Below are positions 54,582-61,445 of a stretch of DNA of 61,736 nucleotides, piece after piece. The stretch comes from Jacunavirus JC01 (lineage: Duplodnaviria > Heunggongvirae > Uroviricota > Caudoviricetes > Casjensviridae), in the IMG/VR virus record IMGVR_UViG_2974716774_000001, positions 1-61,736 of that record. One strand, written 5' to 3'. The position numbers and the translations under genes are program-made. A model generated the notes under the pieces. It was not told where the DNA came from, searched no databases, and saw only the letters and a program-made list of their open reading frames with translations. Within the stretch, counting starts at the first letter, position 1. Every line of letters starts with the position of its first letter.

Positions 54582-55450
54582 CAGTCTTCTCCGAAAGGAT
54601 TACACTCTTCAGTGCAGTTACCCGGCGCATCTTCATACAACGGCCGGTAGTCATTATCGACTTCACTAAACGTCGCTATCAGGTCAGCGGCGCTACGGAA
54701 GCCCCGGTACATCTTGCGTGGCCCTTCGACCACATTTGGCCCGACGTCACCACAGCTTTTCTCCATTTCCGCCGCGGCGTGGAAGTATTCCGGATTGTCC
54801 TGGAAGGCCCGGAGCAGCTTCGCGTCAGACTTTTTAAAGCAGAAAACGCAGTTTCCGCAGTGCTCAGGTATCCCCAGGTCAAACGGCATAAACTCCCACC
54901 AGTCGAGCACATCTTCTTTCGTGGTTGGCCACCAGTGCGCCAGCGGGTACACCTTGTTTTGCCGGGTCTGGCGGTCAGGCTTTTTAGGCTTGATGCGCCG
55001 TGGTTCGTCAATGCGCATACCGACGGCTGTCAGGTATTCCCCTTTGGCCCAGCCCAGCGCCTCCCACAGATACCCGTGGATCGGTATCTCTTTCAGCTCC
55101 CGCGTGCAGTGCAGGTAGTTGGTGTTCGGTAGCCCATACTTCCGGCACATCTCGATGTAGGGCTCACCTTTGCGGCTGGCGGTCTCGTACGTCACTACCT
55201 TCCAGCCGGTGCGCACGCCTTTCTGCTCGTGCGTTATCGCCTCCACCCACACGGTATTGAAGCCCAGCTGAACGTCGCAGTTATGCACGAAGTCCAGCGT
55301 GGCCGGGTGCTCAAAGCCAGTGTTGGCGAAAAGCACTTTAATGTCGTACTCGTCTGACTTCTCCTGCAGCAGCCGGTACGTCATGTGCGCCGAGGTTCGG
55401 CCACCGGACATGGCGGCCACCAGCCGTGGTTTCATTTGTGATGCCCGCAC
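54578..55450 (-). CDS. PP-loop ATP pyrophosphatase superfamily protein (PAPS-reductase-like)
   Basis: 290-aa ORF; PP-loop-like AAMSGGRTSA near the N-terminus; cysteine pairs HCGNCVFC and NCTEEC. Confidence 0.55.
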   Translation of the reverse strand: MRASQMKPRLVAAMSGGRTSAHMTYRLLQEKSDEYDIKVLFANTGFEHPATLDFVHNCDVQLGFNTVWVEAITHEQKGVRTGWKVVTYETASRKGEPYIEMCRKYGLPNTNYLHCTRELKEIPIHGYLWEALGWAKGEYLTAVGMRIDEPRRIKPKKPDRQTRQNKVYPLAHWWPTTKEDVLDWWEFMPFDLGIPEHCGNCVFCFKKSDAKLLRAFQDNPEYFHAAAEMEKSCGDVGPNVVEGPRKMYRGFRSAADLIATFSEVDNDYRPLYEDAPGNCTEECNPFGEDW

Positions 55451-56208
55451 TTTGAACAGACCAGATAATCTTCCTGGTAGATGTCGGGACAGGAATGAGG
55501 AACCCAGTTGTGCTCACAGGGCTTCGTCTTTTCGCGGTCGATCCCGAGCGTCAGCGGGGCGATTTCATTCGGCATTATCTGGAAGTGGTTAGTCAGCGCG
55601 CCTGCGATGGCCATGCCTTCTTCCCGATCGATGCGTGTTTCGATGCGGGTCAGCAAGCCCTGCTGGAAGATGAATGAGGTTTCGCCCTGCACGTCGTCCA
55701 GCTGAATGACGCGAGGCATCTGATTGAGGTCGGGCAGCTTAAAGCTGGTGGTTTTTCCGCTGCCCTGCTGGCCGACACCGATGACGTCAGGACGGGATTT
55801 CCCCTGTTCCGGTGCGGCGGGCTTATATTGTCGATTCTCCATGCCGAGAAGCTTGAGTGCCTCATCGAAGAACATGATTTCCACCGAAAATCCCTCTGAC
55901 TCCAGTTTGTCGCGGGTTTTAGTGAGTTTTTCCTGACGTGCAACGTTCGTCAGAACCAGAAAGCGCCAGCCCAAAAGGGAGGTTTCGACCTGTTTGCCTG
56001 CAGCTCTGCACCGCGCAGCGAAAGAAGTCATGTTAATCAGATCCCGGAAATTTCCATCCCAGCTGTCGAGGACGCTTTTGCATTTAAGCTTCTCCTTAAG
56101 CGCATAGGCGTAGGTGGTTTTTCCGCAGCCCTGCGGGCCGACAACGATGACGAACGTCGGTCGGTCGCTGGTGACGGGAGGGATGGTGCTGCCATTATGT
56201 CGAATCAT
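55432..56208 (-). CDS. P-loop NTPase with two Walker-A motifs and C-terminal Cys/His zinc-ribbon-like tail
   Basis: 258-aa ORF; VGPQGCGKTT and VGQQGSGKTT; VIQLDD Walker-B-like; C-terminal CEHNWVPHSCP...CSKCGHH. Confidence 0.5.
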   Translation of the reverse strand: MIRHNGSTIPPVTSDRPTFVIVVGPQGCGKTTYAYALKEKLKCKSVLDSWDGNFRDLINMTSFAARCRAAGKQVETSLLGWRFLVLTNVARQEKLTKTRDKLESEGFSVEIMFFDEALKLLGMENRQYKPAAPEQGKSRPDVIGVGQQGSGKTTSFKLPDLNQMPRVIQLDDVQGETSFIFQQGLLTRIETRIDREEGMAIAGALTNHFQIMPNEIAPLTLGIDREKTKPCEHNWVPHSCPDIYQEDYLVCSKCGHHK

Positions 56209-56273: not shown

Positions 56274-56684
56274 TCAGGCCGTGCGCGTTACGATGACCTG
56301 CACGTATACCACGCCGCTCGGCGTGATGGTGGCGTTGGTCTCCATTGTGAAGTTACGGTTGTCGACGCTCTTCGCGTGACGGATGGACTGATTCAGCGAC
56401 TGGCGCAGCTGGCGCTTCCATTCGTTCATGTTCTGACGAACCTCGGCCAGCGTCATGTCGTCCGGCATTTTCAGGCTGCGCGAGTAGTTTCCGCCAGGCT
56501 TGAGAGACAGCAGGTTGGAGATGGCGCTGCCCGGGCGGCCGTTGCCCGGCAGGTCTACGTCCGGCTCGGCAGACAGCAGGGCTGCGGTGATAGCCTGCGC
56601 AGTAAGGCTGGTGGCTGTGTTGCCGCCGGTCGGCGCGTCCACATCATCAGGCAGATCCCATACGTCGTCGTGCTCGTTTGACAT
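56274..56684 (-). CDS. Hypothetical protein, first gene of the long leftward accessory operon
   Basis: About 137 aa from the ATG at 56684 preceded by RBS GGAG; the longer upstream ORF extension runs through the direct repeats and is rejected. Confidence 0.5.
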   Translation of the reverse strand: MSNEHDDVWDLPDDVDAPTGGNTATSLTAQAITAALLSAEPDVDLPGNGRPGSAISNLLSLKPGGNYSRSLKMPDDMTLAEVRQNMNEWKRQLRQSLNQSIRHAKSVDNRNFTMETNATITPSGVVYVQVIVTRTA

Positions 56685-56717
56685 TTTATTACTCCGTGTG
56701 TCGTTTGAAGATGTGAG

Positions 56718-56747
56718 AAAGATATAACTACACTTCGGATGTGTCAA
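56718..56747 (-). promoter_or_regulatory. Sigma70-type promoter with embedded dyad (family member) driving the leftward operon
   Basis: Minus strand TTGACA-CATCCGAAGTGTAG...TATATC about 30 nt upstream of the 56684 start. Confidence 0.45.
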
Positions 56748-56771
56748 ACTTTTTCTGGGCGCTCGGGGGCA

Positions 56772-57024
56772 GGCTGACTTTCTGAAGTAAGGCGGCGCGG
56801 CATGGCGTTCGTCACGGAAAACCGACAGCCGGGTAACTTTTTGAAGTAAGGAAACGCCGTGGCGCCGCGCGACAACCGGCTGACTTTTTGAAGTAAGGAA
56901 GTCATTCAAAAATTTTGGAAGCGAGCGACAGCCGGGTAACTTTTTGAAGTAAGCCGGGGATTTTCCTGAACAGCCGCAAAACCTCGTCGGCTCGATCGAC
57001 AGCCGGGTAACTTTTTGAAGTAAG
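56772..57024. repeat. Array of five direct repeats (core CTTTTTGAAGTAAG; long form CGACAGCCGGGTAACTTTTTGAAGTAAG)
   Basis: Copies at about 56772-56792 (degenerate), 56823-56850, 56873-56898 (degenerate), 56926-56953 and 56997-57024. Confidence 0.85.
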
Positions 57025-57293
57025 CCCCGCGGGCGGCGCGCCTCGCGCGTATATAAAGAGGGCCGTGGCGCCGGGCGGCCCAGGGTGGCGCCGAAAACGT
57101 GTGAAAATACGCGATTTTTGCTTTTTCTATGTGAATCAAGCACTTATCGAATTTTCAGCGCCCTGGGCGGCGTGGTTTTCTTGTGAATCAATGGCTTACG
57201 AGGTGGGCGGCGCGCCCTGGTGGGCCGGGCCGTTCTGGATTTCCATATAAACCAGGCATTTAGCGAATCTGTGAAAATTTTTGTAGAAAGTCT

Positions 57294-57322
57294 TTGACAC
57301 ACTCCGGGTGTATCACTACTAT
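57294..57322 (+). promoter_or_regulatory. Sigma70-type promoter with embedded dyad (family member) driving rightward genes
   Basis: TTGACA-CACTCCGGGTGTATCAC-TACTAT. Confidence 0.45.
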
Positions 57323-57372
57323 TCATCTCATCGGGGCAGCGGCCCCCATCTAAAAACTGATGAGGCGAAAAT

Positions 57373-57633
57373 ATGGAAAAGGTCTATCACACGCTCAAAG
57401 GCGAAACCCTTCAACACTGGCTCACCATTGCCATTATCCGCGATGTTTCCGGCGATGCACGTGTTGAAACGCGCAGCACGATCCATGTTAATAAAGTCTC
57501 CCCCGTCTCCTTCACCTGGGGCGCAGATTTTACCGACGCTGACATCCTGAATGATGGCGACCTTCTGCGCGTAGTTTACCAGCGCTACGGTCGTGACATT
57601 TTCACCGGTAAATATACCCGCGATTTTAATTAA
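57373..57633 (+). CDS. Hypothetical protein
   Basis: 86-aa ORF with RBS GAGG upstream. Confidence 0.4.
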   Translation: MEKVYHTLKGETLQHWLTIAIIRDVSGDARVETRSTIHVNKVSPVSFTWGADFTDADILNDGDLLRVVYQRYGRDIFTGKYTRDFN

Positions 57634-57643
57634 GGAGATCATC

Positions 57644-58165
57644 ATGCAAACTATTCAAACTAAATATAGCAATGGTCGAGTACGTGCCGCGTGCTGGAAT
57701 GGCTCCTGTCGTATTGATGCAGACCCGGCGCTGTCCAGTGAGGCTAATCATCGTGCCGCCGCTGAAAAATTGGTCGCTAAATTAAACGCTAATCGTAACG
57801 TTTTATGGGGGATCGTATGCAGCGCGCCATCGGTGGGCGACGGCTGGACTTTCATTATTGACTACGTGCCGGATATTCGCCCGCTTAATATGTCCATCAC
57901 GGTTAAATTCATGCCCGCGACTAATACCGGCCCGGCTTATATGCGTGTTTATTCATGGTTAAAACCAAAAGGAATTAAGGTGCATTATTCGCCGAAAGTC
58001 GCGGACGGTTGCGATATTCAAGGGCACGCGTTGTATGCGGCAAATATAATGCTGGATGAAATAAACCGCCAGTGTGAGGAAACGCGCGCGGGTATCAAAT
58101 ACGGCATTAGCGAATACGTTATGACCTACGACGGCGATCGCCTGTTCACCGTCAAAGCTGAATAA
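57644..58165 (+). CDS. Hypothetical protein
   Basis: About 173 aa from the ATG at 57644 preceded by RBS AAGGAG. Confidence 0.45.
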   Translation: MQTIQTKYSNGRVRAACWNGSCRIDADPALSSEANHRAAAEKLVAKLNANRNVLWGIVCSAPSVGDGWTFIIDYVPDIRPLNMSITVKFMPATNTGPAYMRVYSWLKPKGIKVHYSPKVADGCDIQGHALYAANIMLDEINRQCEETRAGIKYGISEYVMTYDGDRLFTVKAE

Positions 58166-58277
58166 TATTTAATTCTGGCCTTTCCGCCGTCGAAATATGA
58201 AAGCCCCGCGGGCCGTGAGTAGCGGCGGAAAAGGTTTTAATTAAGTGTTAATCCGAATAACTGAAAGGGGAATTATT

Positions 58278-58901
58278 ATGCGTGCCATTAGTCTGTCTGA
58301 ATCCGCTTCTTACCGTGTCCTGTACACTTCCCTTGCGCATGTGTCGCCTGCGGATCTTGCCAACCTTAAATCTATGTGTGAGGCCGGATATTATTTCGTT
58401 CACAACGTGGAAAATGATTTTTCCGGTATTATTTGCCGCTATGGTGCCGTAACGCCTGAAAGCGATGTCGGGGAAGTGATGATCGGCGATTATGGGTTTT
58501 CTGAATCTTTCGGCGAAATGATCGCGCAGTTCAAAGACGCCGGTTTTGATGCGGTGCATTTTGACGTTGACGGGGATTTAGTGGAGGGCGTCACCTGGTA
58601 CACGGAAAATAATACTCGTGTACAGCCCATTGCTTACGGCTGTGAAATATTAACATGGTGGGATCTGGCCGTTGAGCATCAGCTCACCGCAACGGATGAA
58701 TACGGGGATGACGGCGACGCGGATTTAAAATATTTTTTGGCGGATGGCGTGCTGTACTGCCTCGATAATTTCATGCGAGTAACTGATGGCGAAATGCAGG
58801 AGATGGGCTTTCACGCGAGCGCCGGTGAATCAAACGGCAGCGCCATCTGCATTACGCTCTCGGATAATAGTGATTTTGTCGACGTGGCGCGCGTATCATG
58901 A
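58278..58901 (+). CDS. Hypothetical strongly acidic protein
   Basis: About 207 aa from the ATG at 58278 with RBS AAGGGG; very high Asp/Glu content. Confidence 0.45.
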   Translation: MRAISLSESASYRVLYTSLAHVSPADLANLKSMCEAGYYFVHNVENDFSGIICRYGAVTPESDVGEVMIGDYGFSESFGEMIAQFKDAGFDAVHFDVDGDLVEGVTWYTENNTRVQPIAYGCEILTWWDLAVEHQLTATDEYGDDGDADLKYFLADGVLYCLDNFMRVTDGEMQEMGFHASAGESNGSAICITLSDNSDFVDVARVS

Positions 58902-59104
58902 CCGGCCCGGCAAAACGTGCGGCGGTTAAATTTACCGTATGCGCCGCGCTTGCTGTATTCGGTGGAGTGGCGATCCCGTTTGCCGGGTCGCCGTATAAGG
59001 TTTTTCTTTATGTCCTGGCTATCGGCGTATGCGTTAAACTCGCATGGCCCAGCCAGGAGGAGGGCGAGGCGCTGATTAAGGCGGTAGACGATGAGAAGCG
59101 TTAA
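58898..59104 (+). CDS. Small membrane protein
   Basis: 68-aa ORF; two hydrophobic segments. Confidence 0.4.
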   Translation: MTGPAKRAAVKFTVCAALAVFGGVAIPFAGSPYKVFLYVLAIGVCVKLAWPSQEEGEALIKAVDDEKR

Positions 59105-59279
59105 GATTGAAACGCGCGGCGGCATGTTGCTACGCGCGCCGCTCGATGCGATATCCGTTATCGAGGAAACCGGATCGTTGCGCGCTGAATGGGACATGCG
59201 GCATGTGTTGATTCATAATCCGCGCTTCCTGTACACGGTCAGGCCCGGCGATATCAAATCAATTCAGTATTCCCAATAG
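59091..59279 (+). CDS. Hypothetical small protein
   Basis: 62-aa ORF overlapping the upstream gene; followed by a terminator. Confidence 0.35.
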   Translation: MRSVKIETRGGMLLRAPLDAISVIEETGSLRAEWDMRHVLIHNPRFLYTVRPGDIKSIQYSQ

Positions 59280-59303
59280 CCCGCATCGCGGGCTTTTTTA
59301 TTT
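59278..59303 (+). terminator. Rho-independent terminator
   Basis: Stem AGCCCGC / GCGGGCT, loop ATC, followed by TTTTTTATTT. Confidence 0.65.
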
Positions 59304-59372
59304 CCGATCCGCGACGAACGCCCTAGTTTTGGATAGCTCGCTAACTATCACATCACGAAAATAAATGATTGT

Positions 59373-59401
59373 TTGACACACTTCAGGTGTATCATTAATA
59401 T
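59373..59401 (+). promoter_or_regulatory. Sigma70-type promoter with embedded dyad (family member)
   Basis: TTGACA-CACTTCAGGTGTATCAT-TAATAT. Confidence 0.45.
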
Positions 59402-59447
59402 TCTCTTATCAGGCCGATTCCCGGCCCCCACTGATGAGGTTGTGATT

Positions 59448-59840
59448 ATGGATCGTACGAAACTTGCCGCTGATTTCACCCAGGGCTATATCGAGGCGCT
59501 GTTATTCTCTTCCACTGTCGAGATCAACGGCGAAACGGTGAGCGCCGATCTGGTGGGATATGTTTCAACCGCTGCGATCGGCTCATGCACTGCGGATTGT
59601 AACGATTTCCTGTCAAAGCATAAGCCGCTGGTAAAACAGGCCGCACGCATTGAAGGCTACAGCGCATCACAGGCGGGCCATGATTTCGCGCTCACCCGCA
59701 ACGGTCACGGCGCTGGATTCTGGGATCGCGAGGTGTTGCCCCAGGAGCTGCGCGACGCGCTCACAGCCGCATCACAGGCTTTCGGTGAGGTCAGCGCATA
59801 CGTGAATGATGCCGGTGAGGTCGAATTAGCCAACGCCTGA
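59448..59840 (+). CDS. Hypothetical protein
   Basis: About 130 aa from the ATG at 59448 with RBS GAGG. Confidence 0.45.
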   Translation: MDRTKLAADFTQGYIEALLFSSTVEINGETVSADLVGYVSTAAIGSCTADCNDFLSKHKPLVKQAARIEGYSASQAGHDFALTRNGHGAGFWDREVLPQELRDALTAASQAFGEVSAYVNDAGEVELANA

Positions 59841-59846
59841 AAGTGT

Positions 59847-59876
59847 TTGACACACTCGGTGTATGTCATGTATATT
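59847..59876 (+). promoter_or_regulatory. Sigma70-type promoter with embedded dyad (family member)
   Basis: TTGACA-CACTCGGTGTATGTCATG-TATATT. Confidence 0.4.
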
Positions 59877-59904
59877 CACCACATCAACTGGTGAGAGGTG
59901 ACAC

Positions 59905-61115: not shown

Positions 61116-61156
61116 CTGATATCCATTCCTTCCCGTCTCTCATCCGGCCCGCCCTG

Positions 61157-61183
61157 CGCGGGCTTTTTTATTTCCGCTATTCC
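61157..61183 (+). terminator. Rho-independent terminator
   Basis: Stem GCCCGC / GCGGGC, loop CCTGC, followed by TTTTTTATTT; near-copy of the 59278-59303 terminator. Confidence 0.65.
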
Positions 61184-61343
61184 GCCACGCTTTGACCTTT
61201 ATCCGACTTGTGCGACGAACGCCCTGGTTTTGGATTCAATTCTAATTATCACGCATGTTATTAGTTAGCCGTGCCCGTTGCCACGTTGCAGCGTGCGCCC
61301 TGCGATGCGCCCTGTAAGCGGGCCTGTGATACGGGCCAGTGCT

Positions 61344-61445
61344 CACACACTTCGGATGTGTCATGGGTGGCTGTGGTGCTGACACTTCGGATGTATCAAA
61401 GGCGCGGTGTGATTGTGACACGTTGATACACATGGAATGTGTCAT
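61344..61445. promoter_or_regulatory. Cluster of TGACAC/GTGTCA dyad elements (operator-like or packaging-recognition sites)
   Basis: CACACACTTCGGATGTGTCA (61344-61363), TGACACTTCGGATGTATCA (about 61380-61398), GTGACACGTTGATACACA and AATGTGTCATG (about 61412-61445). Confidence 0.4.

Follow-up and report, generated by a model that had tools for sequence, protein, structure and literature searches.

A strongly acidic two-domain protein of Cronobacter phage JC01 and its relatives in phage-plasmids, genomic islands and plasmid leading regions

What might a strongly acidic protein of 207 residues do for a phage in whose genome paper its gene has no assigned function (PMC9759504)? The protein is encoded in the right arm of Cronobacter phage JC01, a Chi-like phage whose genome of 61,736 bp has the terminal 12-mer GGTGCGCAGAGC (PMC9759504); the window analysed here, the whole stretch of 61,736 nucleotides, carries this 12-mer at either end and is the complete genome of JC01 (Casjensviridae). 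The gene itself is not new, because its sequence is already in the databases (100% identity, P0001), as a 'hypothetical protein' of Cronobacter phage JC01 in GenBank and as a 'DUF5983 domain-containing protein' in UniRef. A first-pass annotation had singled it out as a candidate DNA mimic of the Ocr/ArdA type. Here we describe the protein as two distinct domains that recur, fused or as separate genes, in phages and phage-plasmids, and that carry a conserved negative charge. Our tentative reading is that it acts as a stoichiometric inhibitor that binds a host protein in early infection.

The open reading frame (ORF) proposed in the first-pass annotation was confirmed, and the segments DYGFSESFGEM, DEYGDDGDADLKY and FDVDGDLVEG that it had quoted are all present in the translation. 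Delimited mechanically, the ORF opens at an in-frame GTG at position 58245; the downstream ATG was preferred because homologues start there (P0003 begins MRAISLSES), and a Shine-Dalgarno-like sequence (Table 1) is also in its favour. The marked richness in Asp and Glu was likewise borne out. With 21 Asp and 15 Glu (36 residues, 17.4%) to 3 Lys and 6 Arg (9 residues, 4.3%), the protein has a net charge of -27 and an isoelectric point (pI) of 4.05, the lowest among the 102 Met-initiated ORFs of at least 100 residues in all six frames of the window.

Residues 16-108 match the C-terminal domain of DUF5983 (Pfam PF19419) over profile positions 3-88 of 90, with 31.4 bits against a gathering score of 27 (E 2.4e-7), in agreement with the Pfam annotation already precomputed for the protein, and this N-terminal domain (N-domain) also matches phrog_5003 (E 4e-9). 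The C-terminal domain (C-domain) is of the phrog_1845 type. Its direct match to that family is weak (residues 117-204, E 0.014), and stand-alone relatives retrieved with the family profile match phrog_1845 with E values down to 2.6e-11; no Pfam family was matched by the C-domain, including in its stand-alone form. It is conserved chiefly in hydrophobic and aromatic residues, together with R167 and R205, and carries the motif Y..(L/M).DFMR ... ES..S ... LSD..D.V..(A/G)R. Two other readings of the C-domain were rejected: an internal duplication of the N-domain, given an hhalign probability of 0.9%, and the element described by AntiFam ANF00264 3' of DUF5983 in E. coli, as the profile, run on all forward frames of the E. 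coli locus, found nothing beyond DUF5983. When 1.84 billion representative proteins were searched exhaustively with a profile of the family, 210 relatives came out at E <= 0.001, and local re-scoring together with matches from earlier searches brought the set to 216 proteins, of which 85 are full-length two-domain proteins, 47 are N-domain matches and 83 are C-domain matches, the last two groups being mostly stand-alone proteins of about 100 residues. The 85, a count of database matches that includes near-identical cluster representatives, lie mostly on Casjensviridae-like contigs of 58-62 kb, and the closest relatives belong to Yonseivirus and Jacunavirus, two genera of the Casjensviridae. 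DUF5983 also occurs in longer fusions (P0095, P0101 and others), which lie on short contigs and whose N-terminal extensions found no annotation in Pfam, PHROGs or the PDB.

The two domains are fused in JC01, in Klebsiella Yonseivirus phages and in Salmonella phage SLP-22. In Erwinia phage pEp_SNUABM_08 they are split, with the C-domain alone (gp72) in the position of the JC01 gene and DUF5983 encoded by a separate gene (gp79) 2.5 kb downstream. The N-domain occurs alone in about 200 non-mobilizable SSU5-like phage-plasmids, about 105-135 kb in size among the matches listed, where its gene adjoins a DUF1380 gene and has a DUF4942 methylase nearby; at least one of these phage-plasmids also has a stand-alone C-domain gene 3.6 kb away (A4 profile, E 7e-20). 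That both domains recur together, whether fused or split as in pEp_SNUABM_08 and in the SSU5-like element, argues that they work jointly. Other stand-alone C-domain genes lie within arrays of small unannotated ORFs, and the homologue in Klebsiella phage SAKp11 is followed, three genes (about 0.7 kb) downstream, by one that encodes a DUF905-containing protein. Stand-alone C-domain proteins of 93 residues are labelled 'ABC transporter' in Enterobacter hormaechei plasmid NZ_CP132001.1 (L004, 8894-9175) and in Klebsiella phage ST13-OXA48phi12.3; in all likelihood the label is mistaken.

The acidity is not a peculiarity of JC01. In an alignment of 52 relatives with 30-54% identity the net charge ranges from -8 to -32, and from -21 to -32 among its full-length two-domain members, with a median pI of 4.09. 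Individual acidic positions drift and many are poorly conserved while the net negative charge persists, and such retention at this level of divergence indicates that the acidity is selected and not accidental. Stand-alone versions of either domain are acidic too, the median charge being about -10 per 100 residues. The DUF5983 homologue of E. coli islands (163 residues, L012), in contrast, retains the polar motifs of the family at a pI of 6.06 and a net charge of -2. Strong negative charge is a trait of the phage and phage-plasmid branch, and the core property of DUF5983 would on this comparison be a specific polar site.

An AlphaFold2 model built from the 52-sequence alignment has a mean predicted local distance difference test score (pLDDT) of 93.6 and a predicted template modelling score (pTM) of 0.84, a value that for a two-domain chain points to fixed packing between the domains. 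The N-domain has the element order beta-alpha-beta-beta-alpha-alpha-beta and the C-domain is richer in beta strands, with the acidic loop EYGDDGDAD (about residues 141-150) of the C-domain as the softest segment, that is, the block of lowest pLDDT. Two copies modelled in tandem with a 30-residue Gly/Ser linker (17-row alignment) gave a pTM of 0.76, with the linker alone below pLDDT 50 and with additional strand pairing near residues 4, 11-13 and 102; as read from these tethered copies, without a map of predicted aligned error, the protein is probably a homodimer. A Foldseek search of 350,542 chains of solved structures returned a best E value of 0.17, and PDB sequences searched with profiles of the whole family and of each domain gave nothing below E 0.1 (best for the whole family, E 0.26). 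At the detection level of these tools, similarity to Ocr, ArdA, KlcA and many anti-defence proteins of recently solved structure would be excluded, in a PDB set presumed to hold them, its entries not having been checked individually. Among predicted viral structures the significant matches are all uncharacterised phage proteins, including pEp_SNUABM_08 gp72 (template modelling score 0.83 on the target) and gp79 and a protein of Colwellia phage 9A.

The gene is the third of an operon transcribed rightward (Table 1). The first-pass annotation had placed it, in the right arm, under a 'family' promoter. This family, TTTGACACACT..GGTGTATCA..TAnTAT, does exist, with copies at 57294-57322, 59373-59401 and 59847-59876 and a leftward copy at 56747-56719, but the copy that would serve the acidic gene lies about 960 nt upstream, beyond two ORFs and a stable hairpin, and no promoter-like site was found on the plus strand directly 5' of the gene. 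None of 200 shuffled sequences was as stable as the hairpin, which has a GC-rich inner stem followed by UUUUAAUU and may act in attenuation or in RNA stability; an Rfam scan of the right arm, the hairpin included, found no match. The G+C content of the gene is 49.8% and that of its two upstream partners likewise about 49-50%, against 58.5% for the genome, and in a nucleotide comparison with phages the right arm gave a single match of 56 nt.

Table 1. Position in the window of the acidic gene, of its two domains and of the other elements of the rightward operon.
Feature	Position	Strand	Remarks
Sigma-70-like promoter	57294..57322	+	TTGACA-17-TACTAT, with internal near-palindrome ACACAC..GTGTAT; presumed operon promoter
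First ORF of operon	57373..57633	+	86 aa; homologue of Chi_029
Upstream gene	57644..58165	+	173 aa; phrog_3199 (E 1.3e-60); homologue of Chi_030; Casjensviridae core gene
Long hairpin	58163..58251	+	Fills most of the 112-nt gap before the acidic gene; -37.9 kcal/mol, z -3.4
Shine-Dalgarno-like AAGGGG	58265..58270	+	7 nt 5' of the ATG; read from the sequence
Coding sequence of acidic two-domain protein	58278..58901	+	207 aa plus stop; ATG at 58278, TGA ending at 58901
N-terminal domain (aa 1-110)	58278..58607	+	PF19419, DUF5983 C-terminal domain / phrog_5003
C-terminal domain (aa 111-207)	58608..58898	+	phrog_1845-type; no Pfam family
Downstream gene	58898..59104	+	68 aa; predicted small membrane protein; phrog_8635; homologue of Chi_035
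Last ORF of operon	59091..59279	+	62 aa
Intrinsic-terminator-like hairpin and T-run	59278..59294	+	Operon end; identical copy at 61146-61164

The N-domain family has a second life outside lytic phages. A survey of conjugative elements' leading regions lists a DUF5983 family (family 72) among the 100 largest leading-region-enriched families, with 618 members, a false-discovery-rate p value of 6.6e-199, a median ORF position of 2 from oriT and T-strand orientation, and with no DIAMOND or Foldseek match to the anti-CRISPR or anti-restriction sets of that study; DUF905, DUF1380 and DUF4942 families are on the same list (Samuel & Burstein, Nature 2024, PMC11541004, Suppl. Table 1). Of 5,426 complete E. 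coli genomes, 4,603 contain yeeW-like DNA, which in the matches listed lies under annotations of yeeW and cbtA. The CP4-44-type island block in which it lies comprises DUF905, DUF932, an annotated anti-restriction protein, RadC/JAB, DUF987, CbeA, CbtA and DUF5983, followed by DUF957 and DUF4942. Most of the E. coli copies inspected are reduced to the DUF5983_N part (PF25638), the PF19419 domain having been lost; K-12 YeeW matches PF25638 at E 2e-29, and the phage protein has no match to it.

According to the explanation that we tentatively prefer, the gene would be an accessory gene, expressed early as part of the first operon that this Chi-like phage transcribes rightward. Its product, with two packed alpha/beta domains, a probable homodimeric state and a charge of about -27 per chain, would bind a host protein and block it stoichiometrically while infection is being established, in a role shared with that suspected for its domain relatives in CP4-type islands, phage-plasmids and the leading regions of plasmids. 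A basic or nucleic-acid-binding target is suggested by the retained negative charge; candidates would be a component of host defence or some other host protein that is basic or binds nucleic acid. That the gene is expressed early, that its product binds a host target and that it has any anti-defence activity are all things that we infer, and several considerations weigh against the whole. PHROGs, Pfam, NCBIfam and PADLOC give neither domain family a function. Being enriched near anti-defence genes amounts to guilt by association, and the early timing is read solely from the sigma-70-like promoter. His21 and the D96-x-D98 loop are no less compatible with a catalytic site, or one for a metal or ligand, than with a surface that binds proteins, and the C-domain is nearly universal in the early operon of this phage family and could serve a core phage function instead of counter-defence. 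A bolder proposal, possible but doubtful, is that the DUF5983 C-terminal and phrog_1845 domains form an unrecognised two-part anti-defence or establishment module, with a fold unlike that of solved proteins, perhaps a new class of nucleic-acid mimic, which is deployed fused or split and is common to lytic phage early operons, phage-plasmids, islands and leading regions.

The conserved residues of the N-domain give the strongest competing explanation, in which His21, R54, H94 and the D96-x-D98-(G/A)-D loop bind a divalent cation or a nucleotide-like ligand. The protein might then be a small enzyme or a binder whose site could sequester or cleave a host signal, with acidity incidental or serving the binding of cations. 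His21 is invariant, in 85/85 full-length proteins and 45/45 stand-alone N-domains, and D96 (86-95%), D98 (82-87%), R54 (77-96%) and G50 (82-87%) are strongly conserved. The loop that follows the last strand of the N-domain reads H-F-D-x-D-(A/G)-D. The PF19419 signature consists of an invariant His after strand 1, G-x-I-x-R and (A/V)-H-(F/L)-D-x-D; the corresponding residues H21, G50-I52-R54 and A92-V93-H94-F95-D96-V-D98 are common to JC01 and the 163-residue E. coli protein, so that the motif persists in a homologue that is not acidic. A preprint places a DUF5983 protein in the ECOD glyoxalase/bleomycin-resistance (VOC) group by DPAM, and in our model the N-domain order beta-alpha-beta-beta-(alpha-alpha)-beta may be seen to resemble a VOC module, although the preprint's assignment was not reproduced for the JC01 protein. 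A universal three-His metal site was ruled out because H42 and H94, nearly invariant in the two-domain phage group, are kept in only 45% and 61% of stand-alone N-domains. We regard a ligand site or enzymatic activity of this kind as unlikely, if the least unlikely of the alternatives to a stoichiometric inhibitor.

The proposal made from the DNA letters, that a protein whose acidic surface resembles the phosphate backbone ties up type I restriction-modification or other DNA-binding defence enzymes and lets unmodified phage DNA escape, draws on the same charge that we take to be selected in the phage family. Known DNA mimics have charge densities comparable to that of the acidic protein, whose net charge and acidic fraction are as expected for such a mimic. 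Ocr and ArdA are dimers, as predicted here; the gene occupies a variable accessory slot that looks early; and DUF5983 is enriched in leading regions and adjoins KlcA-type anti-restriction and orphan methylase genes. Against this, no similarity in sequence or fold links the protein to Ocr, to ArdA or to another solved structure, the DxD-type loop and the invariant His look like a specific site and not like a diffuse charge pattern, and the E. coli homologue is not acidic. The first-pass annotation had looked to structure prediction to tell a mimic from an enzyme with an active site: no enzyme fold was recognised, but the compact alpha/beta two-domain fold is also unlike an elongated helical mimic. 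We consider a mimic of the Ocr/ArdA type improbable.

No more probable is a core phage function unrelated to defence, in which the protein would be a partner of the phrog_3199 protein or of the translationally coupled membrane protein and act in the start of replication, superinfection exclusion or regulation. Among the Casjensviridae, what separates the phrog_3199 gene from that of the small membrane protein varies, but a C-domain protein is usually encoded there. Four genes follow the phrog_3199 gene in phage Chi, and the last of them, Chi_034 (phrog_9514), has a different N-terminal domain fused to the C-domain; proteins of the Chi_034 type are found in about 100 Chivirus records, and most Chivirus genomes have C-domain proteins. 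The ATG of the JC01 membrane-protein gene overlaps the stop codon of the acidic gene (ATGA), and Chi_034 overlaps the Chi homologue of the 68-residue protein by 4 nt in the identical way. A C-domain gene comes after the phrog_3199 gene not only in JC01 and Chi but also in pEp_SNUABM_08 and in the metagenomic contigs L006, L007 and L015, in which the C-domain gene is a stand-alone one. Both domains, however, occur in unrelated elements that lack phrog_3199 (found in 120 phage records, with a single matching plasmid record), the stand-alone genes sit in arrays of small ORFs, and the flanking genes differ in the SAKp11 and SLP-22 phages. In the JC01 slot of pEp_SNUABM_08, beside the C-domain gene, we also noted the acidic-looking gp71 (L009, 4608-5243, 211 aa, phrog_10310), whose N-terminal 'F.F.EL.D.AK..A' recalls the start of the C-domain; its match to the family profile is marginal (E 0.067).

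The weakest alternative, a toxin-antitoxin-related factor whose phage version neutralises CbtA-type toxins or acts on their cytoskeletal targets FtsZ and MreB, is very improbable, for although yeeW is translationally coupled to cbtA in E. coli islands, overlapping its stop codon by 4 nt, and widespread in the species with cbtA annotations among those matches, and although published surveys place DUF5983 consistently downstream of cbtA, the inspected E. coli copies mostly keep just the DUF5983_N part that the phage protein lacks, and neither cbtA nor cbeA was found in the JC01 right arm or near the homologue in the SSU5-like elements and other phages inspected.

The surroundings of the operon hold further features. 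A divergent control region of about 600 bp (56719-57322) separates the leftward from the rightward gene blocks and contains five direct copies of a 31-nt repeat (CGACAGCCGGGTAACTTTTTGAAGTAAG..) at 56764-57027, spaced 47-71 nt apart and flanked by the leftward (56747-56719) and rightward (57294-57322) promoters; these could be regulator-binding sites or origin iterons, and a spurious minus-strand ORF of 289 residues (56274-57143) runs through them. The promoter copies within 57286-57332, 59365-59411 and 59839-59885, with partial copies at 61345-61399, carry a near-palindrome, ACACAC-N5-GTGTAT, between the -35 and -10 elements, which suggests that one repressor has an operator in each of these early promoters. 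At 59278-59351 and 61146-61252 operons end in an identical terminator, CGCGGGCTTTTTTATTTCCG, followed by a 41-nt element of 80% identity, GCGACGAACGCCCTrGTTTTGGAT.., so that cassettes of terminator and spacer are repeated ahead of the next promoter or of the genome end. For the 62-residue ORF at 59091-59279 the match to phrog_18953, a family annotated 'tail protein', is confined to the last 58 residues of that family (E 1.6e-9); such an annotation is odd for an early region. A second acidic protein (59448-59840, 130 aa, ORF pI 4.56, phrog_1915), with the motif LTRNGHGAGFWD and its own copy of the family promoter, is conserved beside the C-domain gene in contig L015 (48% identity). On the minus strand at 55432-56208 a protein of 258 residues has two P-loops, GPQGCGKTT and GQQGSGKTT, encoded by a 40-nt DNA repeat of 93% identity (55747-55786 and 56113-56152), and weak AAA and Zeta-toxin-like Pfam matches; it appears to be an internally duplicated NTPase.

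As far as we could find in the searchable literature, neither the two-domain architecture nor its fused-or-split co-occurrence across phages and phage-plasmids has been described, and the same holds for the branch-specific acidity and for the bridge from the Chi-like early slot to a leading-region-enriched plasmid family. Should the protein inhibit a host defence, DUF5983, a family found in most E. coli genomes and in the top-100 leading-region set, would gain a function, and the Chi-like early accessory slot would be linked to the 'anti-defence islands' of conjugative elements. For JC01 as a biocontrol agent, knowledge of its counter-defence genes would help in predicting host range. Should the protein not act against defence, it would be one among many uncharacterised acidic phage early proteins. 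A confident model that has no solved structural relative makes it a good target for structure determination.

How does the protein compare with systems already known? With Ocr (T7 gp0.3) and ArdA it shares a high density of negative charge, small size, a predicted dimer and a gene location among early or establishment genes. It differs from the elongated helical Ocr and the three-domain arc of ArdA in being a two-domain alpha/beta protein in whose family one His is invariant and a DxD loop is conserved. Neither by sequence nor by profile did it resemble Ocr; an elongated all-helical dimer fold was not found, nor was any Pfam match besides DUF5983 at E <= 0.1, nor was there a hidden Markov model match to ArdA (PF07275) or an arc of three domains. 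PADLOC models gave no match at E <= 1 for the acidic protein and seven neighbours, and NCBIfam likewise none for the gene or its neighbours. The likeness to phrog_1845 and to phrog_9514 proteins of the Chi_034 type consists in the signature Y..L.DFMR / ES.FS / LSD.D.V..R and in the same early right-arm slot of the Casjensviridae, although phrog_1845 members are mostly stand-alone proteins of about 95-100 residues and Chi_034 has a different, non-acidic N-terminal domain. Family 72 of the leading regions shares the Pfam domain, its members coming from conjugative elements and islands and not from lytic phages. The YeeW/Aec77-type proteins of E. coli CP4-44-like islands differ in having DUF5983_N, in lacking the C-terminal phrog_1845 domain and in their pI (6.06, as against 4.05 in JC01), and yet it is with these PF19419 proteins that the JC01 protein shares the invariant His, Arg and His-x-Asp motifs, together with a location on mobile elements among establishment and anti-restriction genes.
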